NCBI GenBank assembly: GCA_041909105.1
Contig: JAYREE010000005.1
Location: 17,885-81,884, forward strand
Direction of reading: 5' to 3'
DNA: 64,000 nucleotides
DNA from: Azonexus sp.
GTDB taxonomy: Bacteria > Pseudomonadota > Gammaproteobacteria > Burkholderiales > Rhodocyclaceae
The notes below the pieces were generated by a model. The model searched no databases and was not told the DNA's origin. It saw nothing but the letters and a program-made list of their open reading frames with translations. The first letter of the stretch is position 1. Each line of letters opens with the position of its first letter. The position numbers and the translations under genes are program-made. Positions 6,490-49,551 of the stretch are shown here, in pieces.

Positions 6490-7019
6490 CCCTGCGTCCG
6501 CATTCCATCTGGAACGACTGGAACTTCAACTTGCTTGATCAAGAGGGAAGAATCGTCGGAGGCATCGACATTCCAACGTGGGCACAGGCAAAAAATGCTC
6601 GACTACGTTGGCAGCATCCGGAAGATGCCATTGCTGCAGAACTGAATATTGGCAGTCAAACCAGTCGTATCCGATTCGAATACCTCAGTCGAGGCTGGAC
6701 AAATAACATCCGTTGGACGCTGGAATCCAATGACGGAGACGTTCTAGCTAGCCTGGATCAGCTTCGGCCTGAAACGAAACGGGGAGGTACGCCCCGTTTC
6801 CTGCTCACAAAGCCATTCCCAGCCGAGTTATTGGCGATCAGTGGGCTTTGGGGAAATATCCGAATGGACCTGAAAATCGCCGGTGGCAGCGAGATGCTCT
6901 GTGTATCCACCCCCAAGCGCTTTAGTATTCGCCGCGAATTGAGGGTCGAGAACGACGCGCTAGCCCCGGCTATTCAAGCCTTCATCGGTTTCATTGCTCT
7001 GACCTACTATTGCAGTTAG
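6462..7019 (+). CDS. Hypothetical protein, 185 aa
   Basis: Open ORF filling the gap between hpnE and the convergent PaiB gene; less GC-biased codon use than neighbours; no recognised motif. Confidence 0.6.
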   Translation: MPKPEISILTLRPHSIWNDWNFNLLDQEGRIVGGIDIPTWAQAKNARLRWQHPEDAIAAELNIGSQTSRIRFEYLSRGWTNNIRWTLESNDGDVLASLDQLRPETKRGGTPRFLLTKPFPAELLAISGLWGNIRMDLKIAGGSEMLCVSTPKRFSIRRELRVENDALAPAIQAFIGFIALTYYCS

Positions 7020-7124: not shown

Positions 7125-7781
7125 TCACTCCCGGTTTTCAGACTCCCGTAAACGCTGCACCACAATCTCGCCCATCGCTGGCTGCGCATGCGGGTCGGCC
7201 GGATCGGTCAGCCCGGCGATCACGCCTAGGCGATCTGGCAGCGCACGGTTCTGGCTCATCTTCCACTTCCCGTCGATCTGGCTGATGACGATCTCCAGCC
7301 CGACAATGGCCTTCATCTGGCTGGCGATGAATTCCTCCGGCGCTTCACCCAGCGCCCACGGCTGTACCCGCTTTCCTTCATGCCCGGCGGTCAGGGCATC
7401 GAGTTGAGCGCGTAGCCACTCGGCATCGTCATGCACCATCACCCGGCCACGCACCTGCACCGTGGCGTAATTCCAGGTCGGCACGGCGCGATGCGTCTCG
7501 GCCTTGCTCGGGTACCAGCCCGGCGTCACATAGCCCTGCTCGCCCTGAAACACCACCAGGCAATCGCCGCCGCCAATGAACTCCTGCCAGTGCGGATTGG
7601 CTCGCGCCAGGTGGGCACGCAGGATGCCGGACTCGCCTGCGCCGGCATCGAGCAAGAAAGGGACGGGCGACGCCAACAATCCGGAGGAACCACTGGAAAT
7701 GAGTAGTCCCAAGGGGTGTTGGCGGATCAGGTCATGCATCCGCCCCAGGTCGGGGTCGCGAAAACTGGCTGGGTTGTACAT
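7125..7781 (-). CDS. FMN-binding negative transcriptional regulator (PaiB family)
   Basis: MYNPASF, HLARANPHW, YVTPGWY...VPTWNYATV, GKWKMSQNR. Confidence 0.9.
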   Translation of the reverse strand: MYNPASFRDPDLGRMHDLIRQHPLGLLISSGSSGLLASPVPFLLDAGAGESGILRAHLARANPHWQEFIGGGDCLVVFQGEQGYVTPGWYPSKAETHRAVPTWNYATVQVRGRVMVHDDAEWLRAQLDALTAGHEGKRVQPWALGEAPEEFIASQMKAIVGLEIVISQIDGKWKMSQNRALPDRLGVIAGLTDPADPHAQPAMGEIVVQRLRESENRE

Positions 7782-7804
7782 ATCAGTCTGTCGCTTTCAA
7801 AAAG

Positions 7805-8479
7805 TCAGGCGACCAGCCGCCCGGACTGGATGCGCAGCACGCGCCCGCAGCGGGCGGCGATGGCTTCATCGTGCGTGACCAGTACCAGTGTCGTGCCTTG
7901 CACGGCATTCAGCTCGAACATCATGTCGATGATCTGCCGGCCGGTCGCTGCATCAAGGTTGCCGGTCGGTTCATCGGCCAGCACCAGCGCCGGATTCGGT
8001 GCAAAAGCGCGAGCCAGGGCGACACGCTGTTGTTCCCCGCCCGAAAGATGCTTGGGGTAGTGCTTCAGGCGATGGCCGAGACCGACGCGCTCCAGCCAGC
8101 CGCGGGCGATTTCGCCGGCACCGCGATTACCGGCCAGTTCCAGCGGCAGCATGACGTTTTCCAGAGCATTGAGCGAGGGCAGCAACTGGAAGGATTGAAA
8201 GACAAAACCGAGCAGGCGGCCACGCTGGCGGGCCCGTTCATCCTCGTCGAGCGCGGCGAGCGATACCCCGTCGAGCCGCACCTCGCCAACGCTCGGTTCG
8301 TCCAGTCCGGCGAGCAGGCCGAGCAGGGTCGATTTGCCGGAACCCGAGGCGCCGACAATGGCGACCGTTTCGCCCGGCATGACCGCGAAGGAAATATCCT
8401 GCAAAATCGTCAGCGACTCGCCGCCGTTATCGACGGTCTTGCCCAATCCCGACACGTCCACCACCGGTTTTTCCGCCAT
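7805..8479 (-). CDS. ABC transporter ATP-binding protein (YbbA/LolD-like)
   Basis: Walker A GASGSGKST, LSGGEQQRVALARA, LADEPTGNLD; start at MAEKP, divergent from tesA. Confidence 0.92.
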   Translation of the reverse strand: MAEKPVVDVSGLGKTVDNGGESLTILQDISFAVMPGETVAIVGASGSGKSTLLGLLAGLDEPSVGEVRLDGVSLAALDEDERARQRGRLLGFVFQSFQLLPSLNALENVMLPLELAGNRGAGEIARGWLERVGLGHRLKHYPKHLSGGEQQRVALARAFAPNPALVLADEPTGNLDAATGRQIIDMMFELNAVQGTTLVLVTHDEAIAARCGRVLRIQSGRLVA

Positions 8480-9092
8480 GCGCTCCGCTCTCTCCACCTG
8501 CCTGTTGTTCGTTACCCTGCTGTTCTCTGCGCCCTTCGCCCACGCAGGCAAGACCATCGTCGTCATGGGCGACTCGCTTTCCGCCGGCTACGGCATCCGC
8601 CCGGAACAGGCCTGGCCAGCGCTGCTCGGGCAACGGCTGGCGGAAAAACGTTTCGATTATAGCGTCGCCAACCTTTCCATCTCCGGTGAAACGACCGCCG
8701 GTGGGCGTTCCCGCCTCGGCCCGGCGCTCAAGGAGCAGCACCCGGCCCTCGTCGTCATCGCACTGGGCGCCAACGATGGCCTGCGCGGCCTGCCGCTCGC
8801 CCAGATGCGCGACAACCTGCTGGCCATGATCGATGCCAGCCAGTCGGCCAAAGCCCGCGTATTGCTGATCGGCATGCGCCTGCCACCCAATTACGGGCCT
8901 TACGCCGAAGACTTCCGCAGCGTGTTTGCCGAATTAGCAAAGCAGAAGAAAATCACCCTGCTCCCCTTCCTGCTCGAACCGGTCGCCCTGCAGCCGAGGC
9001 TGTTCCAGGCCGACAACCTGCACCCAGTGGCCGAGGCCCAGCCCCTGGTGCTCGATCATGTCTGGGCGGCGCTGGCACCGCTGCTAAAATAG
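8478..9092 (+). CDS. tesA: Arylesterase / acyl-CoA thioesterase I (SGNH/GDSL hydrolase) with signal peptide
   Basis: GDSLSAGYG, ISGETTAGG, LGANDGLRG, DNLHP; start trimmed to MRSALS. Confidence 0.9.
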   Translation: MRSALSTCLLFVTLLFSAPFAHAGKTIVVMGDSLSAGYGIRPEQAWPALLGQRLAEKRFDYSVANLSISGETTAGGRSRLGPALKEQHPALVVIALGANDGLRGLPLAQMRDNLLAMIDASQSAKARVLLIGMRLPPNYGPYAEDFRSVFAELAKQKKITLLPFLLEPVALQPRLFQADNLHPVAEAQPLVLDHVWAALAPLLK

Positions 9093-16364: not shown

Positions 16365-17957
16365 ATGTTGAAAATCCATTTCCTCGCCACTCTGGCTGCC
16401 CTCGCCTTGGCCTTGCCGGGAATCGCCGCCGAAGGCAAGCCCGTCAAGATGAACAGCACGGCTGATCACACCAAGTTCAAGGAACTGCAGGGCACCTTTG
16501 CCTCCGGCCCCGAAGTCACCAAAGCCTGCCTGACCTGCCACACCGAGGCCGCGGGCCAGGTACATCGAACCAAGCACTGGACTTGGGAGTTCCTGAATCC
16601 GGCCAACCAGCAGCGCCTTGGCAAGAAAAACGTCATCAACAACTTCTGCATCTCGATACCGTCGAACTATGCTTTCTGTACCAGTTGTCACGTAGGATAT
16701 GGCTGGAAAGATGCAAATTTCGACTTCAGCGCCGAAGAGAATGTCGACTGCCTGGCCTGCCATGACACCACCGGCAGTTATAAGAAGCTGCCCGGCCTTG
16801 CCGGCCATCCCCCGGTCAAGGACACCGAAGTACCTCCTGGATCTGGCAAGATCGTCAAGGGGATCGACCTGACCAAGGTTGCTCAGAAGGTGGGCAAGAC
16901 CAGTCGCGACACCTGCGGCAGTTGCCACTTCTTCGGCGGCGGCGGTGATGGCGTCAAGCATGGAGACATGGACTCCTCGCTAGCCGCCCCCGACAGGGAA
17001 CTCGACGTGCATATGGATGCGACTGGCCTTGATTTCACTTGCGGCACCTGCCACAAGACATCGAGCCACGATGTTCCTGGAAGCCGCTACACCCCGGTTG
17101 CCGTAGACCGTGACGGAGCACACATGCGTGGCAAGGAAGACAAATCGAGTCCTGTCACCTGCCAGAGTTGCCATGGCCAGTCACCGCACAAGGGGCGTGG
17201 CCTGCCTGCCAAGCTCAACGATCATACTGACAAGGTCGCCTGCCAGACCTGCCATATCCCGGCAATTGCCCGTGGCGGCGTAGCTACGAAAATGAACTGG
17301 GACTGGTCAACTGCCGGCAAGCTATCGCCTGAAGGAAAGCCAATCCTGAAGAAAGATGAAAAAGGGCGGATCATCTACGACTCCAAGAAAGGCGATTTCA
17401 CTCTTGGTGAAAACGTCGTTCCGGAATATGCCTGGTTCAACGGTGAGGTCACCTACACCTTGCTGAACGACAAGATCGAAAATACCGAAAGCATCACCAA
17501 GATCAATGCTCTTGGCGGAAGCCCAAGCGACGGTCGCTCGATGATATGGCCCCTGAAAGTCTTCCGAGGTACACAACCCTATGATGCGGAACACCGCACA
17601 CTGGTGACACCGCACACCGCGGGCAACGACGACACCGCCTATTGGAAGAATTTCGGCTGGGAAAAGGCGATCGAATCGGGAATGAAGGTCTCGGGAGCCC
17701 CATTCTCCGGCAAGGTGGGATTCATCAAGACCGAGATGTCATGGCCAATTACGCACATGGTCGCCCCCAAGGAAAAGGCTCTTGGCTGCAACGAATGTCA
17801 CGCCAAGGGGGGGCGCCTGGAAAAGGTCGCCGGCATCTACATCCCTGGTCGCGATGGCCATCCTCTGGTTAACACCTTGGGCTGGTTGGCCGCTGGTGGA
17901 CTCCTGTGTGGCGTTTCGCTGCATGGTCTGATCCGCTTCCTGCGTCGCAAGCAATGA
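16365..17957 (+). CDS. otr: Octaheme c-type cytochrome, tetrathionate reductase (OTR) family, with C-terminal membrane anchor
   Basis: Eight CxxCH motifs (CLTCH, CTSCH, CLACH, CGSCH, CGTCH, CQSCH, CQTCH, CNECH); GPEVTKAC, HWTWE, GKKNVINNFC, ITHMVAPKEKAL; signal peptide and C-terminal TM helix. Confidence 0.92.
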   Translation: MLKIHFLATLAALALALPGIAAEGKPVKMNSTADHTKFKELQGTFASGPEVTKACLTCHTEAAGQVHRTKHWTWEFLNPANQQRLGKKNVINNFCISIPSNYAFCTSCHVGYGWKDANFDFSAEENVDCLACHDTTGSYKKLPGLAGHPPVKDTEVPPGSGKIVKGIDLTKVAQKVGKTSRDTCGSCHFFGGGGDGVKHGDMDSSLAAPDRELDVHMDATGLDFTCGTCHKTSSHDVPGSRYTPVAVDRDGAHMRGKEDKSSPVTCQSCHGQSPHKGRGLPAKLNDHTDKVACQTCHIPAIARGGVATKMNWDWSTAGKLSPEGKPILKKDEKGRIIYDSKKGDFTLGENVVPEYAWFNGEVTYTLLNDKIENTESITKINALGGSPSDGRSMIWPLKVFRGTQPYDAEHRTLVTPHTAGNDDTAYWKNFGWEKAIESGMKVSGAPFSGKVGFIKTEMSWPITHMVAPKEKALGCNECHAKGGRLEKVAGIYIPGRDGHPLVNTLGWLAAGGLLCGVSLHGLIRFLRRKQ

Positions 17958-28658: not shown

Positions 28659-30437
28659 ATGAACAGGGATCGACCGGATCACCGCGCTTCGCGCCTCTGC
28701 TTCTCACTGCTCTTCTGCTTATGGGCAGTGGTGCTGAGCGTGTTCGAGACACATGCCGGTGAAGGCACGTCGCTGACGGAACTACCCACTGGCCCGCTCG
28801 GGAAGCACTTGCAGGTCTTGATTGAAAACGGGCCCGTCATGACCGTCGACGACGCCTACGCCCAACTCCGGGCGGGCCAATTTATGGCCATCGACACCGA
28901 TGTGCCGAAATTTGGCATTGGCGCGCCACCGGTATGGCTACACCTGCCCATACGCAATAACACGGACACCCCCATCAGCCGACAGTTGGTGATCGGCATC
29001 TCCTGGCTCGACAACGTTGATGCCTACCTCTTGCGCGAAGGCGAGGTGCAGATACATCGCGCCGCCGGCGACAGCGCCGCTTCACTGATCCATCCCCGCC
29101 CTGGCCTGGGTTTCGTTCTGGAGATCAGTATCCCTCCCGGCGACAGCGATCTTTTTCTGCGCGTCGCCACGCCGGACCCGATGCTCATTCCGGTCCGCCT
29201 GCTCGACGAACGGCAAACCAACGCTTTTCAGGTACGCCTTGGCTACGCCTATGGCAGCCTGTACGGGCTACTGCTCGCCTTGATCCTCTACAACTTCCTG
29301 CTTGCCGCGGGTCTGCGCGAAAGCAGTCCACTCGACTATTCCCTGTATCTCGGGGCATTTGCCCTGACCCATTTTGCCTATACGGGACATGGCTACACTT
29401 GGTTGTGGCCGGACTCACCCAACCTCCAACGTTACGTCATCCCATTCCTGATGGTGGCCTTTTCCTGCCTCGGACTACGTTTCGCCAAAGGTTTCCTGGC
29501 CCTGCGACAGCATGCACCGCGGACTTATCTCATCAGCAACGTTTTCAGCGGGATCGGCCTGCTTGGTCTGCCCCTGAGCATCGTTTTACTCCCACAAAAA
29601 CATACCTTACTGTTCGCGTTTGTCTTTGTTCTGCTCTTCTCGGTCATGATGGTCTGGCTTGGGGCTGCGGCGGTGATCCGCGGGCAGGTGGCCGGACGCT
29701 ACTTCCTGGCCGCTGCGCTCGCAGCGATGGCGGGAGCCGCCTGTACCGCACTGACGGTCTGGGTAGGCATTCCCTACCACCCGCTCACTTTCCATGCGGC
29801 GGCAATTGGCATGGCCATCGAAGGAATATTGCTGGCACTGGCGCTGGCCTACCGCATGCGCGAATACCAGCATGCCAGGCAAAAAGCCGAGGTCTTGGCC
29901 CGTACCGATCCGCTGACCCAACTCCTCAACCGACGTGCGCTACTCGAATTGGCCGAACCGCTTTGGCATGGCTGCGAACGCAAGCAGCGACCCTTCAGCG
30001 TCATGATGATCGACATCGATCATTTCAAGAAAATCAACGACGCACATGGACACGAAGCGGGCGACCGGGTGCTCAAGGCCATCGCCAAGTGCATCGCACA
30101 AGCGTGTCGCGCCAGTGACCTCGCGGCCCGCTGGGGAGGAGAAGAGTTTCTCTTGATCCTGCCGGAAACCAGCCTGCAGCAGGCAGGCAATCTCGCCGAG
30201 CGACTACGGCAGCAGATCCTCGCACTGCGCTGCCACGCCGACGGCGAAAGCATCCCATTGAGTGCCAGCATTGGCGTTGCTCAAAGGGCCGACCACGAAA
30301 ACCTTGAGCAATTGATCCGCCAAGCCGACTGGTGGCTCTACGAAGCGAAACAGACAGGGCGAAACCGTGTTGGCGGGATTTCCGAGGAACTGCTCGCCGG
30401 GCTAGCCACGCCCGGCAACGTCGATTCCGCGGGGTAA
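28659..30437 (+). CDS. 7TM-DISM sensor diguanylate cyclase
   Basis: 7TMR-DISMED2-like periplasmic part (PPVWLHL, WLDNVD), multiple TM helices, DPLTQLLNRR, DIDHFKKIND..GH..GD, intact RWGGEEF. Confidence 0.92.
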   Translation: MNRDRPDHRASRLCFSLLFCLWAVVLSVFETHAGEGTSLTELPTGPLGKHLQVLIENGPVMTVDDAYAQLRAGQFMAIDTDVPKFGIGAPPVWLHLPIRNNTDTPISRQLVIGISWLDNVDAYLLREGEVQIHRAAGDSAASLIHPRPGLGFVLEISIPPGDSDLFLRVATPDPMLIPVRLLDERQTNAFQVRLGYAYGSLYGLLLALILYNFLLAAGLRESSPLDYSLYLGAFALTHFAYTGHGYTWLWPDSPNLQRYVIPFLMVAFSCLGLRFAKGFLALRQHAPRTYLISNVFSGIGLLGLPLSIVLLPQKHTLLFAFVFVLLFSVMMVWLGAAAVIRGQVAGRYFLAAALAAMAGAACTALTVWVGIPYHPLTFHAAAIGMAIEGILLALALAYRMREYQHARQKAEVLARTDPLTQLLNRRALLELAEPLWHGCERKQRPFSVMMIDIDHFKKINDAHGHEAGDRVLKAIAKCIAQACRASDLAARWGGEEFLLILPETSLQQAGNLAERLRQQILALRCHADGESIPLSASIGVAQRADHENLEQLIRQADWWLYEAKQTGRNRVGGISEELLAGLATPGNVDSAG

Positions 30438-31348: not shown

Positions 31349-31379
31349 AAAAAAAAGGAAGACACGGAGGTCTTCCTTT
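31349..31379 (-). terminator. Intrinsic terminator of the roadblock/GTPase operon
   Basis: Minus strand AAAGGAAGAC-ctccgt-GTCTTCCTTT, continuing as a run of 8 T. Confidence 0.85.
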
Positions 31380-31455: not shown

Positions 31456-31815
31456 TTAGAAACTCAGTTCCTTGTCGACATCCTGGGTCTTGCGGCGGGC
31501 CATCGCCAGATTGGAGCGCGACTTATCCAACACGAGATAAATGAACACACCTTCCTTACGCGAAGAAGGACGAATGACATGATATTGCTTGCCCAAGGTG
31601 ATCAGAATGTCTTCAATCACGTCGTTCAGCCCCAATGCACGCATCGTCTTCTGTTTGGCTCGAATCACTTCGGTGTTCCCAGCCGCTGCAACCTCGAGAT
31701 CGACACCCGATCCTGCACTACCCAGCATCATGCCGCTGGTCGAGTCGACAATTGCAGCGCACATGGCGCCATCGAGTGTCAGAAGTTCATCCAGAGTTTG
31801 GTTAATGGTAGCCAT
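31456..31815 (-). CDS. Roadblock/LC7-like protein (119 aa)
   Basis: LDGAMCAAIVDSTSGMMLG, EVAAAGNTEVIRAK, IEDILITLGKQYHVIRP, NLAMAR. Confidence 0.82.
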   Translation of the reverse strand: MATINQTLDELLTLDGAMCAAIVDSTSGMMLGSAGSGVDLEVAAAGNTEVIRAKQKTMRALGLNDVIEDILITLGKQYHVIRPSSRKEGVFIYLVLDKSRSNLAMARRKTQDVDKELSF

Positions 31816-31854
31816 CGTGTACTCCTAAATTAATTGAATGAAAAAACTGCCCAA

Positions 31855-32220
31855 TTAAAGGCTGTCCACCACGGCGGACAGATCCGAAACTTGCTTCTGC
31901 CAAGCGGCCCAATCGACGGGTACCTTATCCATGGTGATCCCGACCATGATCATTCCTTTGCCGCAGGGCAGCATGGTGATTCGCCCATGGGCATGCACCA
32001 TTAAGGCCACGGAAAGCGGCCCCAATATTGAAAAATGACGATTCAGGCGATCGCTCAAGCGCCAGTAATCGCTGGCGGCTTCGGCATATTGGGCAATTTC
32101 GCGTATTTCTCCGGCGCCATGCCAAACCATCCCGGCCTCGATTTCCACCAGAGCACAACCGGCCATCCCGGGCATCACAGCCAGGTTGTCGATCATTTGC
32201 CGCAGTCGTTCTGCTTTCAT
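31855..32220 (-). CDS. Divergent roadblock-like protein (121 aa)
   Basis: MPGMAGCALVEIEAGMVW pattern parallels the roadblock N-terminus; start overlaps the upstream stop. Confidence 0.65.
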   Translation of the reverse strand: MKAERLRQMIDNLAVMPGMAGCALVEIEAGMVWHGAGEIREIAQYAEAASDYWRLSDRLNRHFSILGPLSVALMVHAHGRITMLPCGKGMIMVGITMDKVPVDWAAWQKQVSDLSAVVDSL

Positions 32221-32612
32221 CCGCTCACCAATATCCGCCCCAATTGGGCTGCCCGGTAATTCACTTGCGCGAGAACGGCGGCCCGATCGGCGATGACCGT
32301 CACCAGCAAGGGGCGACTCTCGTAATTCACCGATTGAAATACCGCGAACCCATCCCTGGATTGCACCATCATTCCTTCGGTCGCCCCGAGTTCAGCCTCC
32401 TGGCACACCACCTCGCCAATCGCAACGATCGAACTGGTCATCGCTGCAATCCGCTTGGCATCCGCGTTTCCCGAAACCACCGAGACCAGATCGAACCCAT
32501 CGATCGAGGCGACGACAACCCCCTTCACCCCCTGCAGTTCACGCATCAACGCTTCTGCTTCTTGGCGAACCTGAAGCTGCAAACCTATTGGCAATTCAAC
32601 GTACGAGCTCAT
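32217..32612 (-). CDS. Roadblock/LC7 (MglB-like) protein (131 aa)
   Basis: GVKGVVVASIDGFDL, RIAAMTSSIVAIGE, ELG...MVQSRDG, AVLAQV. Confidence 0.88.
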   Translation of the reverse strand: MSSYVELPIGLQLQVRQEAEALMRELQGVKGVVVASIDGFDLVSVVSGNADAKRIAAMTSSIVAIGEVVCQEAELGATEGMMVQSRDGFAVFQSVNYESRPLLVTVIADRAAVLAQVNYRAAQLGRILVSG

Positions 32613-33151
32613 TCCAGAACATCCATCCGATTGATTTCCATTTGCGCCAGCAGGATGTCGAGCAGCAACGCCACATCTTCACGTTTGCGGACATCGACAT
32701 CGATCACCGGAAAGGCATAACCACGCCCACACAAGAAATCGATGTATTCGTCGAGCGACGGCTTGGTATGGGTTTCGAGACGCCCCACCCCCACAGCAAA
32801 AGGCACGCTGTCGAGGTACGGCGAAAACCCATCCAAATAGGTCACCAGGTCGGCCATCGGATCGGGGCGCGTGTTATCGATCAGAACGATCACCCCCAGG
32901 GCATTGTTGGCCAAAATCTTCCAGAGAAAATCGAATCGCTGCTGCCCGGGGGTACCGAACAGACGAATACGATCCCCGTTATCCAGCGTCATCATCCCAA
33001 AATCCAGGCCGACCGTTGTTTTCGCCTTGCTGTGCTCGCTGTCGGTATTGTCCACATCGGTGACCACCGGCGGAGTTTCGCTGATGCAACCGATCGCGGT
33101 GGTCTTGCCCGCCCCCATGGGCCCGGTAAACAAAACTTTGTATTCGTTCAT
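32609..33151 (-). CDS. Small Ras-superfamily GTPase (MglA/CvnD-like ATP/GTP-binding protein)
   Basis: MNEYKVLFTGPMGAGKTT (G1), KTTVGLDFG (switch I), LFGTPGQQRFDFLW (G3). Confidence 0.9.
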   Translation of the reverse strand: MNEYKVLFTGPMGAGKTTAIGCISETPPVVTDVDNTDSEHSKAKTTVGLDFGMMTLDNGDRIRLFGTPGQQRFDFLWKILANNALGVIVLIDNTRPDPMADLVTYLDGFSPYLDSVPFAVGVGRLETHTKPSLDEYIDFLCGRGYAFPVIDVDVRKREDVALLLDILLAQMEINRMDVLE

Positions 33152-33155
33152 ATTT

Positions 33156-33827
33156 TTACAGGCCCAGCTTTCGCCGAAAACGGGCAAAAAAACCATCCGA
33201 CAAGGGCATGGCCGCTCCCCCCCCAACATTGGCCTTCACAACCGGTGCATTTGCTGACACCGGAATGTTTTGAATCAAGCCGACACTGCGTAACGCTTCG
33301 ATGAATGATTCGCACTGTCCGACAGGCCAAGACGAAATTTTGCTCATCTCGGTAATCGACAATGCGCGCTTCATCAGCATCGTCGCCAGCCGGATACGTC
33401 CCGGATCCTTATGTAACAGTAAGGCTGGTGGCCAACGCACGAGTTTCATCCTGATAATGGCTTTCTCCGGTACGGGCGAAATGCTTGCATTGATCGAAGG
33501 CCGCATGGCGTCATCACCAACCCTCGCTGCGAACTTCAAGAGCCAGGATTCCAAATGGTCGGAACGTAAAGGACGAGTCAATGAGTTTTCGTCCAAGCCC
33601 TGATCACCGCGCTCCAACACACGCAGAACCACGGTCGTTGGACGGCAAAGCCCCGCGGGCATAGCAGAGGCAAGCTGCTCACTCAGAACGACATCGACAG
33701 GCCCCGTTTCCGAAATTTCCCAAGGAAAGTCCGGGCGTGTGGAAAACAACCGGAAAAAAGCCTTGACCAGTGCCACTTCATTGGCCGGCATCTGGTAAAA
33801 ACCAAATCGCAATTTCGCCACCATCAC
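33156..33827 (-). CDS. Hypothetical protein: degenerate receiver-like N-terminus, winged-helix-like C-terminus, amphipathic tail
   Basis: VDVVL...LTRPLR (receiver-like without a clear acidic pocket); KLVRWP...RLATML...ITEMSKIS...CESFIEALRSVG; ends GFFARFRRKLGL. First gene of the operon. Confidence 0.7.
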   Translation of the reverse strand: MMVAKLRFGFYQMPANEVALVKAFFRLFSTRPDFPWEISETGPVDVVLSEQLASAMPAGLCRPTTVVLRVLERGDQGLDENSLTRPLRSDHLESWLLKFAARVGDDAMRPSINASISPVPEKAIIRMKLVRWPPALLLHKDPGRIRLATMLMKRALSITEMSKISSWPVGQCESFIEALRSVGLIQNIPVSANAPVVKANVGGGAAMPLSDGFFARFRRKLGL

Positions 33828-34366
33828 TCTGCCAACACCGTTTCTGCGAGCCCTTAAAAAAGGTCGGGCAATGCGCGAATCAAGGCACTGCAGAAAAAAC
33901 AGTCCGATTCGAGAACGCCAGATTTATAAAATCAGGGCAAATTATAATAATCAAACCCAGCAAAAACACACCAAATTTACCATATTTACAAACCAAATAC
34001 ATTAATCAACAAATCGTCATGCTGTGCGAACGGAATCAGTTCTACTGATAGTGGAAAGTCTAGTTTTAAAATCGTCCAACAGGCTGATTCAAATAACTTT
34101 ATTTGAACAACAAGCAATCACTTTCTCATTGTTTTACCAACCACCACCCGAGCTAGGCGCCTCTAAATATTACACAAACACAAAATATATTTGTTGATTT
34201 TGCAACTTAAGCAAGGTGGTTAGCATGAGCGGCGCCAAGCAAGTAGATCATTCGGGGCAGGCTCCCCCGTAGCGCAGCAGGCGCCCTGCATCAGACGCAG
34301 CGAATTTCCGGCGTACAAACCACCCACCAAACAAGGCGTCGGCTCTCAGAAAAAGCAAGATCATGC

Positions 34367-34390
34367 AAAAAAGGGCTGCATTACAGCCCT
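34367..34390 (-). terminator. Intrinsic terminator after the mutarotase gene
   Basis: Minus strand AGGGCTG-taatg-CAGCCCT followed by TTTTT. Confidence 0.75.
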
Positions 34391-34404
34391 CGAGAATATT
34401 CAGC

Positions 34405-35253
34405 TCAGACTGCTACCAGCGTCTGCCGACCGTACCACTCGTCGCCCGGCTCGACGGTCACTGCTTCTGTAGCCACGGCCGCTTCGACACAAAGCATGTG
34501 GCGCCAACCATCCGCCGGCATGTCGGGTAGTGCCGCGCATTGCTCGACCCATGGATTCCACACGACAACATCCGGGAACCCCTGACTCTGGATACCCAGA
34601 CTCAGATTGCCGGCCTGCAGCAGTTGCGGGCGGCCAACATCGCGGTAGATGCGATCAACTTCCTGCTCGACACCCAGGTGAGTACCGGTTTCGCGCACGA
34701 CCTGTCGGCCCTTCGCCACATCGCAATAGTTGTAGCCGTAAAGCCCTTCCAGCGCGACGTCCTCAACCTGGATGGTACGCAAGTAGGTATGCAGGGCACC
34801 GGTGAAGTCGAACTCGGACTCGCCTGTATTGGCCACGCACAGTTCGAGGTCGATGCGATCGGCTTCGATCATCAGGGTCAGTTCGACGCGGAAAGGGTGC
34901 GGCCATACTTGGCGCGTGACCTGGTCGTCCGTCACCTCCATCGTTACCAACGCATAGTCGTCACCGCTGCGCTGCGCCGCCACCTCCCAACGCCGGGTAC
35001 GCAGGAAGCCATGGCGCGGCAGACTACCCTGCTCGGCGAATTGCGGGAAACAGACGGGAACACCGCCGCGGATCGGCTTGCTGCCATCGAACACGGCCTT
35101 CTCGGAGAGGAAAAGGCGTTCGCGGCCATCCGGCGTCACCCAGGACAGCACCTGCCCGCCGAGGCGGCTGATGACGGCCGAAGAGCCTTTCGGGCCGTGC
35201 AGGCGCAAGGCTTCGGTGCCGTGGAAATCGATGGTTTCAATGTAAGGTTTCAT
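34405..35253 (-). CDS. D-hexose-6-phosphate mutarotase (aldose 1-epimerase family, YeaD-like)
   Basis: GGQVLSW, PIRGGVPVCFPQF, HGFLR, FTGALHTY, EVDRIY, VVVWNPW, MLCVEAA. Confidence 0.93.
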   Translation of the reverse strand: MKPYIETIDFHGTEALRLHGPKGSSAVISRLGGQVLSWVTPDGRERLFLSEKAVFDGSKPIRGGVPVCFPQFAEQGSLPRHGFLRTRRWEVAAQRSGDDYALVTMEVTDDQVTRQVWPHPFRVELTLMIEADRIDLELCVANTGESEFDFTGALHTYLRTIQVEDVALEGLYGYNYCDVAKGRQVVRETGTHLGVEQEVDRIYRDVGRPQLLQAGNLSLGIQSQGFPDVVVWNPWVEQCAALPDMPADGWRHMLCVEAAVATEAVTVEPGDEWYGRQTLVAV

Positions 35254-35578
35254 GAGCTTTCGGAATGACGTAAAGATTGGGCCGGACATGCAGCAGCTCG
35301 ACCTCGTGGCCAAGCAGGCTGACGCTGCCGCTGCGCCGGTTGTCGCCGGTATCGCTGTACTCGAAGGCGAAGACGCGGCGCAGGACAAGACGCCCGTCTT
35401 CATCGCGCGCAAACGCCGTCGAACGACCGGCCACGGTTTCATCAAGGAATTGCAAGCCTTCCTGGGCACAAGCGGCGCGCGCCGCCTCGATACCGATTTC
35501 CCGTGCTTTCAGGCCATCCAGCCAGAACCATGCAAGGCCGCCGAGAATGAGAAGGAAGAGCAATTCGAGCAGATCCAT
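35237..35578 (-). CDS. DUF3301 domain-containing protein
   Basis: N-terminal TM, KAREIG..AC...LQFLDETV, RRVFAFEYSDTGDNRRSG. Confidence 0.85.
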   Translation of the reverse strand: MDLLELLFLLILGGLAWFWLDGLKAREIGIEAARAACAQEGLQFLDETVAGRSTAFARDEDGRLVLRRVFAFEYSDTGDNRRSGSVSLLGHEVELLHVRPNLYVIPKAHETLH

Positions 35579-35670: not shown

Positions 35671-37197
35671 ATGAACTCTCCACTGCAACTGTTCCGCGAC
35701 CTGCTCCCCTTCTCCAACGGCCATACCGAAGACAAGGCCGCAGCCAACGTACACAGCCTGCTCGAATCGACCGCTGGCCTCCCCCCGCAGGAAGTCGTCG
35801 TCCGCCTGACCAGCGGGGTTCTGCCGGCTGCCGCAGGGCAGAGCAACCTGCACATGCGCTTCAAGCTGCTGGAAGATATCCGCCATGTCGCGGAATCGAC
35901 GCTACCAGCATTGGAGGCATATGTCTCGCAAGCGGTACTCCCTTTACCGCTGGCCGCCACAACATCCGCCCTGCATGCCGACAACCTGATCAAGGGCATG
36001 GCCCATGCCTATGCCAACCTCGCCCGCAACATCGCCAAGCATCAGCAGCACCAAGGCTTAAGCCACCTTTTCCATCGTGCGATCCAACGCGCCTTGGCTC
36101 TCGTCGCCCGGCGCCAGCGCCTGGCCTATCGCGCCTATGCGATGCCCTCGGCGACCTCGTGGCAGATGCTGCACGACCTCTACCGCATGGGCTGCGACCC
36201 GCTCACCATGCCACTAAACGGTGAGACCGCACCGATCGAACATGAGTACCTCGAGGCCTTGCTCTTCGCCTACATCGAACCCAACAAACTGCATCGCAGC
36301 GAACTGGACGAACTACTCTTCTCTACCCGCCAACTTGCCGCCTACGCGGTGATCTCCGAAGTCACGCCGGACACCCTGAATATCCGCCAGAGCGAGAGCT
36401 GCTTCCTGGTTCGTCCGGACGAAGGCTCGCCCGGCAGCCCCCTGAGCCGCATCGCGCCAGGCAGTTCGATCTTCGGCTGCCTGATCGTCGATTGCACGCA
36501 GGTTCTGGCAGCGCTGGATCGCAACATTTCGCGCGTACCTGGCAAGAGTATTGAGCCCGACCTGCGCGTTTCGCCTGCCATCCTGCAGGCCTTGCGCACG
36601 GCAATTGGCGGCAAGGGCTCGCGTCGCTTCAGCCGGACGAAGTTCCGTCCCCGCGGCGACGTCGTCGGCGGACTGGCCCAGGTCGTCGCCTTCCTCGACG
36701 GCCATGCCTTCTCGCGCCGCTCGCTCGACGCTTTCGGGCGCCAGGATGCACGCGATTTCGCTGCCAGCGAATGGGCCATGATCGACGAAAGCCCAGACGG
36801 TTTCCGCCTGCGCTTCATCAAGGGCGAAAAGTGGCAGATCGGCGTCGGCGACGTGGTTGCCCTGCAACCGCGCGAATCGAGCAAGGTGCACGTCTGCCTG
36901 GTGCGTCGCGTCACATCCACCAACAATCGTCTCGAACTCGGCCTGCAACTGATGTCGCCACAGGTCAGCATCGCCGAACTCGCCATCGACAACACCGCCG
37001 GGCCGCGCGTAATCTTCATGCACAGCCTGCCGGCCTACGGCCGCTATCCTGGCCTGATCGTGCCGCCCGGCGTGGTCAGCAGCGGCAACTCGGTGACGCT
37101 GCGTTTGCCAGGACGTAGCGTGGCGCATCGCATCGGGAAATGCATGGAAGCCAACGACGGGCTAGAATTCTATGCCCTCGAACCGTCGCCTCTCTGA
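35671..37197 (+). CDS. Hypothetical 508-aa protein with C-terminal PilZ-like motifs
   Basis: Helical N-terminal region; RRFSR (RxxxR) followed later by DESPDG (DxSxxG) and a beta-rich C-terminus. Confidence 0.65.
   Translation: MNSPLQLFRDLLPFSNGHTEDKAAANVHSLLESTAGLPPQEVVVRLTSGVLPAAAGQSNLHMRFKLLEDIRHVAESTLPALEAYVSQAVLPLPLAATTSALHADNLIKGMAHAYANLARNIAKHQQHQGLSHLFHRAIQRALALVARRQRLAYRAYAMPSATSWQMLHDLYRMGCDPLTMPLNGETAPIEHEYLEALLFAYIEPNKLHRSELDELLFSTRQLAAYAVISEVTPDTLNIRQSESCFLVRPDEGSPGSPLSRIAPGSSIFGCLIVDCTQVLAALDRNISRVPGKSIEPDLRVSPAILQALRTAIGGKGSRRFSRTKFRPRGDVVGGLAQVVAFLDGHAFSRRSLDAFGRQDARDFAASEWAMIDESPDGFRLRFIKGEKWQIGVGDVVALQPRESSKVHVCLVRRVTSTNNRLELGLQLMSPQVSIAELAIDNTAGPRVIFMHSLPAYGRYPGLIVPPGVVSSGNSVTLRLPGRSVAHRIGKCMEANDGLEFYALEPSPL

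Positions 37198-44678: not shown

Positions 44679-44682
<4 letters not shown>
44143..44682 (+). CDS. YfiR/HmsC family (DUF4154) periplasmic protein
   Basis: Signal peptide; [36 protein letters not shown]...[20 protein letters not shown]. Confidence 0.9.
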
Positions 44683-47390
<2,708 letters not shown>

Positions 47391-47406
47391 GGCGGAGGAG
47401 ATAACG

Positions 47407-49551
47407 ATGGAAGATCTCGCCACCGTATTGGTAGTTGATGACGAACCGGTAATGCGTACGATTACCCAATCGATCCTGCAGCAAAACGGTTTTGAGGTTA
47501 TTACCGCCGACTCGGCAGAAGCAGCATTTCAGTTGATCGATGAAGGACTATTCCCGGATATCGTGCTGCTCGATGTCCTGATGCCCGGTCTCAACGGTTT
47601 CCAGACCTGCTACCGGCTACGTCAGCAGCAACGTTTCGAACACCTGCCCATCATCATGCTGACCGCACTGGACGACCAAGCGTCGATTGACGAGGCTTAT
47701 CGTAGCGGTGCCACCGACTTCATCACCAAGCCACTGAATATCCCGCTGCTGCCTCACCGCATCCGGTATCTACTGCGCTCGGCAAACGCCTTCAAAGAGG
47801 TTTTCGCCAGCCGGATGACGCTGCTAAACACCCAGCATATCGCTCATCTTGGAAACTGGACGATGGACCCGGAGGGCAACATCGTCACCGCCTCGGCGCA
47901 GTATCTCGACATCATCGGAGAAAACTCCTCCCCCATCCCCGCGCCTCGCCTGCTATTCCGCGTCCATCGTGAAGATCGCGAACTGCTTATCCAGCATCGC
48001 CGCCTACTTCAGGAGGGACAACCCTATCGCCTCGACTATCGCCTGCGCAATCTAACCGACCCGAATACTTGGCACCACGTCCATGAACGCGGTTTCCCGA
48101 ATATCGACCGGGATGGCCGCTATCAGGGTGCGACCGGCTTCACTCAGGACATCACCGAACGAGCCCAGCAGGAAGAGAGAATCCGTGATCTCGCTTGGCA
48201 TGATCGAGTCACCGGGTTGAACAACCGTGGCCGCTTGAGCGAACTAATCGAACGTGAAATCGTCTCTGGCCGCCAGCAGATTTCTCTAGCCGTTCTCTAC
48301 GTCCATATCGCAAGCCTGCGTGAAATCTCGACAGTATTCGGCCAAGAGGTTGCCGATAGTGCCATCCGCGTCCTCTCAGAGCGACTCAAGGAACTACTGC
48401 ACACGCCTGAAAAAATGTGCAACTGTTTCGACAAGGCATGCTTCCTTGCCGCAAAACTGGGGCGTTACGACGAGCACGCTTTCGCCTTGGCAGTGACAGG
48501 CGTAACAAGTGAAGAGCCAATACGCTGCTTTGCCAACACCATCCTGAAGCACTTGTCCGAACCGATGATTCTGCAAGGTCAGGAAACGGTGTTCAAAGTA
48601 TTCCTCGGTATAGCGCTCTATCCGCAAGATGCCCCCGATACCCCTGAGTTGATACGGCGCGCCATGCTGTGTGCAATGCATGCAGCTGCTGGCGATGGCA
48701 GTGACCCCATCAGCTTCTTCGACCCCGAACATGATCGTGAAGCTGCCGAGCGCGTCGCACTAGAGCGCGGCTTGCGCATCGCTCTCGACCAAAGCAGCCA
48801 GCTTGTTCCCTATTTCCAGCCCAAGGTTTGCGCTCACACTGGACAGATTGTGGGAGCCGAGGTGCTGCTGCGTTGGCTGCATCCAGAGCGGGGCATGATC
48901 TCCCCGGCCAAATTTATTCCGATCGCCGAGCAAAGCGGCCTGATCCATCCAATCAGCGAATGGTTGGTTGCCCGTATCTGTGAAACCATTGCCGACTGGC
49001 TAGCGTGGAAACAAGAAATCGGCATGATCAGCATCAATCTTTCTGCGGCAAGCTTTTATCAGCGTACATTGATCCAGTTCATCGACGAGGTGCTTCAAAG
49101 GACTGGTATCCCCGGGAAACAATTGGTCATCGAACTGACCGAGGGAGTACTGTTGCAAAACTCCGACACAGCCAGCCATGTGATCAATGCGTTACGTGAG
49201 CGAGGCATTCGAATTTCGCTGGATGATTTCGGTACCGGCTTTTCCTCGCTCGGCTACCTTAACCGTTTCAACATTGACGAAATCAAGATCGATCGTTCCT
49301 TCGTCATTGACATCGAACGCGACTCTCGCGAACTCGCCTTGGTTCAGGGTATCATCACGCTAGGTCATGCCTTGGGTTTGAAGGTCGTTGCCGAAGGTGT
49401 CGAAACTGCTCGCCAAGCGCAACTGCTACGCGAAATGGGATGCGACATCTTTCAGGGATTCCTTTTCGCAAAGCCCATGCCAGGTGACGAATTCATCCGC
49501 CTTCCGGCTCAGTTATCAGTACCCTCTGAACATCCTGAAAAATTTTCGTAG
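47407..49551 (+). CDS. REC-PAS-degenerate GGDEF-EAL protein (probable c-di-GMP phosphodiesterase)
   Basis: VVDDE...LLDVLMPG...TKP; HDRVTGLNNR; GGDEF replaced by RYDEHAF; EVLLRW, INLSA, ELTE, DDFGTGFSSL, KIDRSF, AEGVE, QGFLF. Confidence 0.92.
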   Translation: MEDLATVLVVDDEPVMRTITQSILQQNGFEVITADSAEAAFQLIDEGLFPDIVLLDVLMPGLNGFQTCYRLRQQQRFEHLPIIMLTALDDQASIDEAYRSGATDFITKPLNIPLLPHRIRYLLRSANAFKEVFASRMTLLNTQHIAHLGNWTMDPEGNIVTASAQYLDIIGENSSPIPAPRLLFRVHREDRELLIQHRRLLQEGQPYRLDYRLRNLTDPNTWHHVHERGFPNIDRDGRYQGATGFTQDITERAQQEERIRDLAWHDRVTGLNNRGRLSELIEREIVSGRQQISLAVLYVHIASLREISTVFGQEVADSAIRVLSERLKELLHTPEKMCNCFDKACFLAAKLGRYDEHAFALAVTGVTSEEPIRCFANTILKHLSEPMILQGQETVFKVFLGIALYPQDAPDTPELIRRAMLCAMHAAAGDGSDPISFFDPEHDREAAERVALERGLRIALDQSSQLVPYFQPKVCAHTGQIVGAEVLLRWLHPERGMISPAKFIPIAEQSGLIHPISEWLVARICETIADWLAWKQEIGMISINLSAASFYQRTLIQFIDEVLQRTGIPGKQLVIELTEGVLLQNSDTASHVINALRERGIRISLDDFGTGFSSLGYLNRFNIDEIKIDRSFVIDIERDSRELALVQGIITLGHALGLKVVAEGVETARQAQLLREMGCDIFQGFLFAKPMPGDEFIRLPAQLSVPSEHPEKFS

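Follow-up and report, generated by a model that had tools for sequence, protein, structure and literature searches.

To our knowledge, small Ras-like GTPases are rare as regulators in bacteria, and two kinds of system built around them have been studied experimentally: the MglA polarity system and the conservons of actinobacteria. The present work concerns an operon of five genes, called g1 to g5 in the order of the operon, in Azonexus sp. (Rhodocyclaceae; assembly GCA_041909105.1), which lies on contig JAYREE010000005.1 within the stretch of 64,000 nucleotides that was analysed as a whole and is referred to below as the window (contig positions 17,885 to 81,884). The operon encodes a receiver-like protein with a winged helix, a small GTPase and three proteins of the roadblock fold, and its motifs, architecture and host range assign it, with a probability of about 0.9, to the Group 3 MglA-type systems. 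The value of the finding lies in a completed parts list, which adds a fifth, conserved component that the published catalogue does not have, in the standout conservation and spread of that component (g5), and in a lead on the exchange of sensor domains.

Prokaryotic GTPases of the MglA family were divided into five groups by Wuichet & Søgaard-Andersen 2014 (Genome Biol Evol, PMC4316618). According to that study, the GTPases of groups 2-5 carry TT in the G2 motif and GTPGQ in G3, those of groups 2 and 3 lack the lysine of G4 and have 'DAR' (D-x-R) in G5, and the MglB proteins coupled to groups 2-5 keep an Asp-Gly pair. Group 3 is described there as 'almost exclusively' beta/gamma-proteobacterial, with loci composed of a protein that bears a domain of unknown function (DUF), an MglA and one or two MglB, the DUF protein being assigned by Phyre2 a receiver-like N-terminus and a winged helix-turn-helix (wHTH) C-terminus which are joined by a variable linker. 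In the part of its Table S2 considered here, Variovorax, Polaromonas, Comamonas, Delftia, Collimonas, Leptothrix, Neisseria and Acidithiobacillus appear as DUF>MglA>MglB> or DUF>MglA>MglB>MglB>, and no locus with three MglB stands among the entries listed in that part. Group 3 is widespread in environmental and host-associated beta/gamma-proteobacteria, among them Neisseria, Ralstonia solanacearum, Variovorax, Comamonas and Xanthomonadales.

Three mglB genes were reported by Meng et al. 2024 (Microbiome, PMC11112851) in Snodgrassella and in 'almost all' group 3 genomes. The third mglB of Snodgrassella is an 'orphan' located ~1 Mb away from the operon and more closely related to mglB-2, and an allele of it improved the colonisation of a non-native bee host and altered the edges of colonies in soft agar; a link to the type IV pilus (T4P) was inferred by the authors but not demonstrated. 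These results are the only phenotypic data for the Group 3 class. Our literature search turned up neither biochemical nor structural studies of Group 3 systems, and nothing relevant on the Neisseria loci or on roadblock/GTPase systems in Comamonadaceae or Burkholderiaceae.

Assignment of the operon to Group 3

The GTPase g2 matches PF03029 at 2.8e-10 and TIGR00231 at 3e-6, and its relatives, which number more than 2,500, come from Comamonadaceae, Oxalobacteraceae and Xanthomonadales. The invariance of its motifs was judged on an alignment of 20 diverse homologues. The G1 motif is GxMGAGKTT, of which GAGKTT is invariant; G2 consists of the invariant pair T45-T46 in the context KxxTTVGLD, with no intrinsic Arg finger; G3 is G66 T67 P68 G69 Q70, invariant and without Asp; and the positions of G4 and G5, which were assigned by sequence order without a structure, hold the equally invariant G121 V122 G123 R124, in place of NKxD, and D153 V154 R155. 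As a GTPase of the Ras superfamily, the protein thus retains its P-loop, switch I (TT) and switch II (GTPGQ) intact, whereas its base-recognition motifs (GVGR/DVR) are non-canonical. A direct sequence link between g2 and the solved MglA structures was considered and rejected, since its top matches among PDB sequences are Rab/Sec4 structures, at about 1e-6; the best 60 of the 91 matches include no MglA structure.

Neither Pfam nor NCBIfam has a match for g1, for which 467 representative relatives were found. The protein is made up of a degenerate receiver-like N-terminal domain, a variable linker, an 'RWPP' motif, a wHTH, a tail of variable sequence and, at the C-terminus, a conserved peptide, [IL]R[RK][RK]LG[LI]. 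Its AlphaFold2 (AF2) model, with a predicted local distance difference test score (pLDDT) of 86.7, has an N-terminal beta-alpha CheY-like domain and a C-terminal winged helix; the N-terminus of the model is matched by Foldseek to the receiver domains of PmrA, CheY and ComE (probability 0.95-0.99; 0.98-0.99 for PmrA and CheY), a winged helix is likewise among its Foldseek matches, and the family profile matches SmtB at 1.3e-4. The canonical set of response-regulator residues (acidic pair, acceptor Asp, beta4 Thr/Ser, beta5 Lys) is not retained in g1. When conservation was counted over 74 relatives, the acidic pair after beta1 was absent and the acidic Mg pocket of receivers was missing, the acceptor position was Asp in 49 of the 74 and Glu in the window, the beta4 position was variable, and the Lys-Pro of receivers was replaced by a near-invariant R84 (64/74) and by P85 (74/74). 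Other positions are strongly retained: W35 is invariant, and W131 (73/74) and P132 (74/74) lie inside the RWPP motif. As modelled, g1 joins a receiver-like domain of non-canonical type to a winged helix. The g1 family has many weak matches to TrmB, IclR, ArsR and MarR, and DUF742, the domain of the conservon protein CvnC, is matched weakly by 4 of the 74 members (best 0.022) and not at all by the g1 of the window; the resemblance of the g1 wHTH to CvnC/DUF742 in particular is weak and non-specific. In most loci g1 is closely coupled to g2, and a hidden Markov model (HMM) of its C-terminal part detects g1-like genes upstream of the GTPase at loci that were missed by tblastn.

The three roadblock proteins differ in how readily their family can be recognized. 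The match of g3 to Robl_LC7 (1.2e-7) is clear, its family profile aligns with 7f8m at 8e-12, with CvnB5 (3leq) at 5.7e-11 and with Rv3364c (9hef), which the paper on MfpD gives as the MfpD ORF, at 8e-7, and its Asp-Gly pair, D38-G39, is invariant. The matches of g4 are borderline (Robl_LC7 at 0.023; profile against 7f8m at 0.018 and against LAMTOR2 at 0.03), and g5 has no match in Pfam. Aligned with each other by hhalign, the g4 and g5 families give a probability of 93.8% and an E-value of 1.7e-7, and the merged g4+g5 profile matches 7f8m at 7e-6, 7yh1 at 1.5e-4, CvnB5 at 1e-3 and LAMTOR2 at 1.2e-3. The AF2 model of g5 (pLDDT 69) has MglC (7ct3) as its top Foldseek match, with a probability of 0.99, and its best matches are all roadblock-fold chains: MglC, MglB, Gtr1/2, EGO and dynein LC7. 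The predicted roadblock fold of g4 and g5 rests on these profile matches to PDB entries and on the g5 model. A direct profile link from g4 or g5 to g3 was rejected, since neither aligns significantly with the g3 profile, and it is for this reason that the set is taken to comprise one canonical roadblock and two divergent ones which are paralogous to each other.

Homologous loci were collected by a scan of species-representative genomes, which yielded 80 loci from Comamonadaceae, Oxalobacteraceae, Rhodocyclaceae, Competibacter and Xanthomonadales. That the genes keep this order in dozens of genomes shows that the operon is not a chance association. The features that define Group 3 are found together in the window: TT in G2, GTPGQ, a G4 without lysine together with a DAR-like G5, a REC-like/linker/wHTH protein encoded upstream, adjacent roadblock genes, and a host from the beta/gamma-proteobacteria. 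The RF3 and Tex proteins encoded in the window fall into clusters of 90% identity or more with proteins of Dechloromonas and Azonexus, and the host is on this evidence a betaproteobacterium of the Rhodocyclales type. The one or two adjacent MglB of the published description correspond to g3 and g4, and g5 comes on top. The same genera that are listed in the catalogue (Variovorax, Polaromonas, Comamonas) hold close homologues of the operon; in Variovorax and Polaromonas, which are Group 3 in Table S2, the GTPases are 60-70% identical and the gene order is the same, and the Variovorax loci catalogued as DUF>MglA>MglB> are g1-g2-g3-g5 in the present comparison. The window also resembles Snodgrassella in having a group 3 mglA and three roadblock genes, of which, by the published description, the third is nearer to the second, as g5 is to g4; it differs in that the third mglB of Snodgrassella is a distant orphan, whereas g5 is the last gene of the operon.

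The operon type is therefore not new. What is new is g5 as an overlooked and best-conserved part of it, which also occurs in other phyla without a GTPase: the catalogue lists one or two MglB and does not list g5, although g5 is present in 68 of the 80 loci, and its absence from the catalogue is explained by the failure of Pfam to recognise it. An earlier, sequence-only reading of this DNA had described a receiver-like/wHTH protein, a Ras-like GTPase and three roadblock-fold proteins in a betaproteobacterial operon that contains no kinase, and had compared them with MglA, MglB, MglC and RomR of Myxococcus and with the conservons; the profiles, AF2 models and Foldseek matches bear out the parts, the host and the lack of a kinase are as described, and the comparisons are apt. 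Its term "uncharacterised" holds in the sense that no function has been assigned in the literature, but not in the sense of a novel type, since Group 3 had already been catalogued (PMC4316618) and three mglB genes had already been reported (PMC11112851).

Conservation and spread of g5

When pairwise identities were computed over 36 clean five-gene loci, the mean was 82% for g5, 67% for g2, 48% for g3, 41% for g4 and 33% for g1. A total of 7,517 relatives of g5 were found, most of them 85-92% identical, and within groups g5 is more conserved in loci that contain g4 than in those that do not (82% vs 63%). About half of the 80 loci (~40, from several families) have the arrangement g1-g2-g3-g4-g5; ~27 have g1-g2-g3-g5, the form without g4 that is found in Massilia, Variovorax and Xanthomonadales; and 7-8 have g1-g2-g3-g4 without g5, one of them with an ORF resembling an insertion sequence at the place of g5. 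The gene g5 always follows a spacer of 35-213 nt and has its own ribosome-binding site (RBS). In two Variovorax loci (L033 and L044, at ~6936-6991) a GC-rich hairpin with a T-run after it (GCGGCAAGGCCGC-ATTTTTTT) lies between the upstream roadblock gene, g3, and g5, and hairpins resembling these are found in Tahibacter loci; the spacer of the window has no significant structure. Such hairpins may tune the expression of g5 relative to the other genes.

Homologues of g5 outside the main set were sought by tblastn of plasmid records. They are 66% identical on the megaplasmids of R. solanacearum, where they belong to a four-gene module, 62% in Acinetobacter, 58% in Agarilytica, 50-57% in Streptomyces, Nocardia and Tsukamurella, 52-55% in Deinococcus and 40-44% in Hymenobacter, and three motifs are near-invariant across these phyla: AAAGNTEVVRAK, IEDILITLGxQYHxIRP and LFLYLVLDKxxSNLAMAR. 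An HMM scan of 6 kb on each side of the g5 homologues found no GTPase in Streptomyces (three loci), Tsukamurella, Deinococcus, Hymenobacter or Methylomagnum. The GTPase-less clusters on two Streptomyces plasmids (L091:4233-6375 and L089:4031-6363) consist of a g5-like gene, a gene for a protein with DUF4388, which is the PATAN domain, a canonical roadblock gene and a second g5-like gene; the PATAN protein matches HTH_20 in L091 but not in L089. These clusters may represent the 'exclusively orphan' actinobacterial MglB clade of the 2014 paper (PMC4316618).

Since g5 is far more conserved than its operon partners and is present elsewhere without them, it most likely contacts a conserved cellular component. 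If g5 is indeed a hub that leads to a conserved target, this would explain hundreds of 'orphan' roadblock genes in genomes that have no cognate GTPase.

Proposed mechanism and competing explanations

The experimentally studied systems offer analogies for the individual parts. With the conservons (CvnA-D; Mfp in mycobacteria) the operon shares the GTPGQ, lysine-less G4 and D-x-R G5 of Group 2 GTPases, a roadblock of the CvnB type (g3, which is nearest to CvnB5 and MfpD) and a winged helix in the partner protein, as in CvnC/DUF742. The literature on Group 2 assigns the roadblock MfpD the role of GTPase-activating protein (GAP) and gives MfpC (CvnC) that of a likely guanine-nucleotide exchange factor (GEF), and by analogy the GTPase of the window would likely be under the control of a roadblock GAP and a wHTH GEF. 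In contrast to the conservons, the operon does not contain the histidine kinase CvnA, which is their first gene; its wHTH protein has an N-terminal pseudo-receiver (pseudo-REC), it has two additional divergent roadblocks, its G4 is GVGR rather than the NxFD of Group 2, and its host is a proteobacterium. It amounts to a relative of the actinobacterial conservon without the kinase. The MglA/MglB/MglC/RomR-RomX system of Myxococcus xanthus likewise combines a small GTPase, a roadblock protein that is its GAP, a paralogous roadblock that is not a GAP and a receiver-domain scaffold with a low-complexity linker, and MglC is the top structural match of the g5 model. However, Myxococcus MglA belongs to Group 1 and has an intrinsic Arg finger, TVPGQ and NKxD where g2 has TT, GTPGQ and GVGR, its genes are dispersed, RomR is a bona fide receiver and no wHTH takes part; the role in polarity is established in Myxococcus. 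Several roadblock subunits surround small GTPases in the Ragulator/EGO-Rag system as well, and the g4/g5 profile leads to LAMTOR2 (1.2e-3) and the g5 model to the roadblock domains of Gtr and Ego, but the Rags are heterodimeric and have a C-terminal roadblock domain of their own, whereas g2 is a single G domain of 180 aa, and the resemblance is at the level of the fold only.

A mechanism in which g2 is the switch, g3 its GAP, g1 the input, and g4 and g5 adaptors has, taken as a whole, about an even chance of being correct. The GTPase, which has the catalytic Gln and no intrinsic Arg finger, would cycle between its GTP and GDP states, and a dimer of g3 would be its GAP, as MglB is for MglA and MfpD for MfpB; this role is proposed because of the analogy with MglB and MfpD, the Asp-Gly pair, and the translational coupling of g3 to the GTPase gene through an ATGA overlap. 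The input or regulatory partner would be g1, with an N-terminal domain that takes a signal without classical phosphotransfer and a conserved C-terminal half (RWPP, winged helix, RRLGL peptide) that touches either the GTPase or one of the roadblocks; g1 may in this way stimulate the exchange of nucleotide, as CvnC/MfpC has been reported to do, rather than act mainly as a DNA-binding output. The gene at the position of g1 appears to carry a swappable sensory N-terminal domain. The order on plasmid pSU2 of Agarilytica rhodophyticola (L087:6001-8072) is g5-like, BLUF-domain protein (242 aa), GTPase and roadblock, and the C-terminal 150 residues of the BLUF protein contain 'SWPDF' and end in 'FLRLG', which resemble the 'RWPP' and 'RRLGL' of g1, the likeness being confined to the WP and the terminal LG. 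As a candidate input whose sensor domains are swapped in nature, g1 is of practical interest, in that a blue-light sensor would make the switch experimentally triggerable. The last two proteins would form an MglC-like adaptor pair, with g5 acting alone or with g3 where g4 is missing, and g5 would be the conserved hub that joins a fast-evolving switch to a conserved cellular partner. Hetero-oligomers of the roadblocks are plausible because g4 and g5 are paralogous.

Several points weigh against this account of the operon. The nucleotide preference of Group 3 GTPases is unproven because their G4 does not have the usual residues of guanine specificity, and the roles of GAP, GEF and adaptor are transferred from Group 1 and Group 2 systems that are distant in sequence. 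The g5 model is moderate in confidence, with its pLDDT below 70, and the occurrence of g5 relatives with no GTPase within 6 kb means that g5 may not regulate a GTPase. The homology of the C-terminus of the Agarilytica BLUF protein to g1 was rejected, since the match to the g1 C-terminal HMM is not significant, and the BLUF variant is for this reason a lead at the level of position and motifs. Finally, g1 could be a DNA-binding output, because a sensor joined to a wHTH is the classic architecture of a one-component transcription factor.

This last point can be developed into an explanation of the whole operon as a GTPase-modulated one-component transcription factor, in which g1 binds DNA as the output, its activity or oligomeric state depends on the GTPase and roadblocks, and a regulon is under the control of the module. 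The winged helix has the backing of the SmtB match (1.3e-4), the weak TrmB/IclR/ArsR/MarR matches and the AF2 model, exchangeable N-termini (pseudo-REC, BLUF, PATAN) that precede an HTH count as a hallmark of one-component regulators, the GTPase-less Streptomyces versions retain an HTH protein together with roadblocks, a transcriptional output was proposed in 2014 (PMC4316618), and conservons control gene expression in Streptomyces. Yet the search for an operator-like motif upstream of g1 across the loci returned just AT-richness and k-mers common to close relatives, the repeats in the window's promoter region are weak, the conserved residues of the winged helix belong mostly to the hydrophobic core and to an Arg-rich first helix rather than to the recognition helix, the related winged-helix protein CvnC/MfpC has been reported as a GEF and not as a DNA binder, and the translational coupling of g1 to the GTPase suggests a stoichiometric complex; we consider such a transcription factor rather unlikely. 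The parts can also be matched one by one to a switch of polarity and T4P of the Myxococcus type, with g2-GTP marking a pole and stimulating the T4P, g3 as the GAP of the lagging pole, g4/g5 resembling MglC (the top match of the g5 model) and g1, a receiver protein with a variable linker, as a landmark like RomR. The changes in soft-agar colony edges and gut colonisation that followed from the third mglB allele in Snodgrassella (PMC11112851) are in keeping with such a role, as are a transposon-sequencing study cited in the same paper, which scored all three mglB as beneficial, and the binding of PATAN domains, found beside the g5-like genes in Streptomyces, to the T4P motor in cyanobacteria. 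A polarity switch is nevertheless unlikely for this operon: g2 has no intrinsic Arg finger, its G3 is GTPGQ and not TVPGQ, and its G4 is not NKxD; no pil, frz or motility genes are conserved beside the operon in the 80 loci; the T4P link in Snodgrassella is the authors' own inference (PMC11112851); and plasmids and megaplasmids carry the module too, as do genomes with tandem copies of it, which is unusual for a core polarity system.

The remaining explanations turn on g5. It may be functionally separate, so that the switch consists of g1-g4 and g5 is merely adjacent to it, as could be suggested by the constant gap of 35-213 nt with its own RBS and, in some loci, a hairpin and T-run, by the 7-8 otherwise complete loci from which it is missing, by its standing alone in Streptomyces, Tsukamurella, Deinococcus and Methylomagnum, and by a conservation out of line with that of the other four genes. 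But it follows the roadblock genes in 68/80 loci from several families, a changed gene order does not part it from the module (in Agarilytica it lies upstream of the BLUF gene), it is a paralogue of g4, it shares RNA contigs with g1-g4 in Candidatus Competibacter denitrificans, and in the window no terminator separates g4 from g5 and the hairpin there is not significant; a separate g5 is quite improbable. The opposite proposal, which we regard as a long shot, makes g5 the true core: a phylum-spanning roadblock family which would dock on a conserved partner and work with sensor-wHTH proteins (pseudo-REC, BLUF, PATAN) and a second roadblock, the GTPase being an accessory recruited only in beta/gamma-proteobacteria and g3+g4+g5 forming a Ragulator-like hetero-oligomeric platform.

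Layout, surroundings and variants of the module

The coordinates of the operon and its parts are collected in Table 1. The sequence-only reading had noted co-oriented genes, a 4-nt gap, two ATGA overlaps and a closing terminator, and all of these are present: the gap lies between g1 and g2, and the overlaps lie at g2/g3 and g3/g4. The spacer between g4 and g5 is 39 nt long and contains an AGGAG ribosome-binding site. For g1, the ATG at 33824 agrees better with the N-termini of the homologues than the GTG at 33827.

Table 1. Features of the five-gene operon, in window coordinates
Feature	Coordinates	Strand	Description
five-gene operon	33824..31456	minus	all genes co-oriented
leader/promoter region 5' of g1	33828..34370	minus	AT-rich, ~540 nt
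g1, 222 aa	33156..33824	minus	pseudo-REC + winged-helix protein (on its model); 'DUF' of Group 3 MglA systems
g2, 180 aa	32609..33151	minus	small Ras-superfamily GTPase, MglA family, Group 3 type
g3, 131 aa	32217..32612	minus	canonical CvnB/MglB-type roadblock; candidate GAP
g4, 121 aa	31855..32220	minus	divergent roadblock (predicted), g5 paralogue
g5, 119 aa	31456..31815	minus	predicted roadblock-fold protein; top structural match MglC
intrinsic terminator ending operon	31354..31379	minus	10-bp stem, 6-nt loop, T8 tail

The leader is bounded upstream because the aldose-epimerase gene on that side ends in a terminator of its own at 34391..34371. The upstream regions of the homologous loci are likewise shifted towards AT (55% vs 63.5% GC). 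No convincing small ORF was found in the leader, and no Rfam family was matched in the leader, between the genes or in the rest of the region; a riboswitch or small RNA in the leader or the spacers was rejected on this ground and because the g4-g5 hairpin has a z of -0.94 against shuffles. An anti-phage defence system was also rejected, since none of the five proteins has a PADLOC match (E up to 0.1).

The neighbourhood in the window is ordinary chromosome, with genes for ClpB, a methyl-accepting chemotaxis protein, prfC, a 7TMR-DISM diguanylate cyclase, DUF2189, aldose epimerase, DUF3301, Tex and a hybrid kinase. The operon itself holds no kinase gene, and the nearest, that of the hybrid histidine kinase 11 kb away, has no conserved linkage to the module. 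No flanking genes are conserved in the 80 loci beyond lineage-specific synteny (e.g. dnaE and LysR genes), and the module is a self-contained unit. Genes of cyclic di-GMP and two-component signalling are dense around the operon: the 7TMR-DISM diguanylate cyclase (28659-30437, plus strand) lies downstream of g5 at a distance of 1 kb, and 11 kb from the operon stand a CHASE8 hybrid histidine kinase and, after it, a REC-GGDEF-EAL protein (44679-49551, plus strand); none of these is syntenic with the module elsewhere. An ORF of 508 aa without a Pfam match (35671-37197, plus strand), 1.8 kb upstream of the operon and divergent from the DUF3301 gene (35578..35237), is not kept beside the module in other genomes.

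Several variants of the module were recorded in the course of the survey. The part of Table S2 of PMC4316618 considered here gives N. gonorrhoeae strains two adjacent orphan MglB and no MglA, and shows N. meningitidis and N. lactamica retaining DUF>MglA>MglB>MglB; the orphan genes suggest that the GTPase was lost in the gonococcus. Two paralogous copies of the module occur in each of several genomes (L026/L036; L011/L049, Ottowia thiooxydans; L068/L075, Dokdonella), and L026 has a transposase-like ORF (7436-8520) where g5 usually follows g4. On an R. solanacearum megaplasmid (L081:3258-5360) a four-gene g1-g2-g3-g5 stands beside modA; the DNA of this module is 97-100% identical among phylotype II strains (Po82, MolK2, CFBP2957 and others), and strain GMI1000 has no record among the matches of the plasmid search. 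The module is carried by tractable hosts, and R. solanacearum is a plant pathogen open to genetics.

No RNA runs cover the window, for which DNA metagenome runs alone were found, an activated-sludge run containing it in full, and expression was therefore examined in a Competibacter relative. Single contigs span all five genes of Candidatus Competibacter denitrificans in four wastewater metatranscriptomes, and one RNA-derived contig stops ~90 nt past g5; these contigs, which are strandless and may include DNA, are consistent with co-expression of the five genes. Directly upstream of the five-gene operon this genome has a shorter Group 3-like set (L012:2774-5020), composed of a g1-like protein of 339 aa that has RIRSRLGI at its end, a GTPase sharing 50% identity with g2, and a roadblock. 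The two sets, which stand in tandem, are paralogous systems, and both are covered by the RNA contigs.

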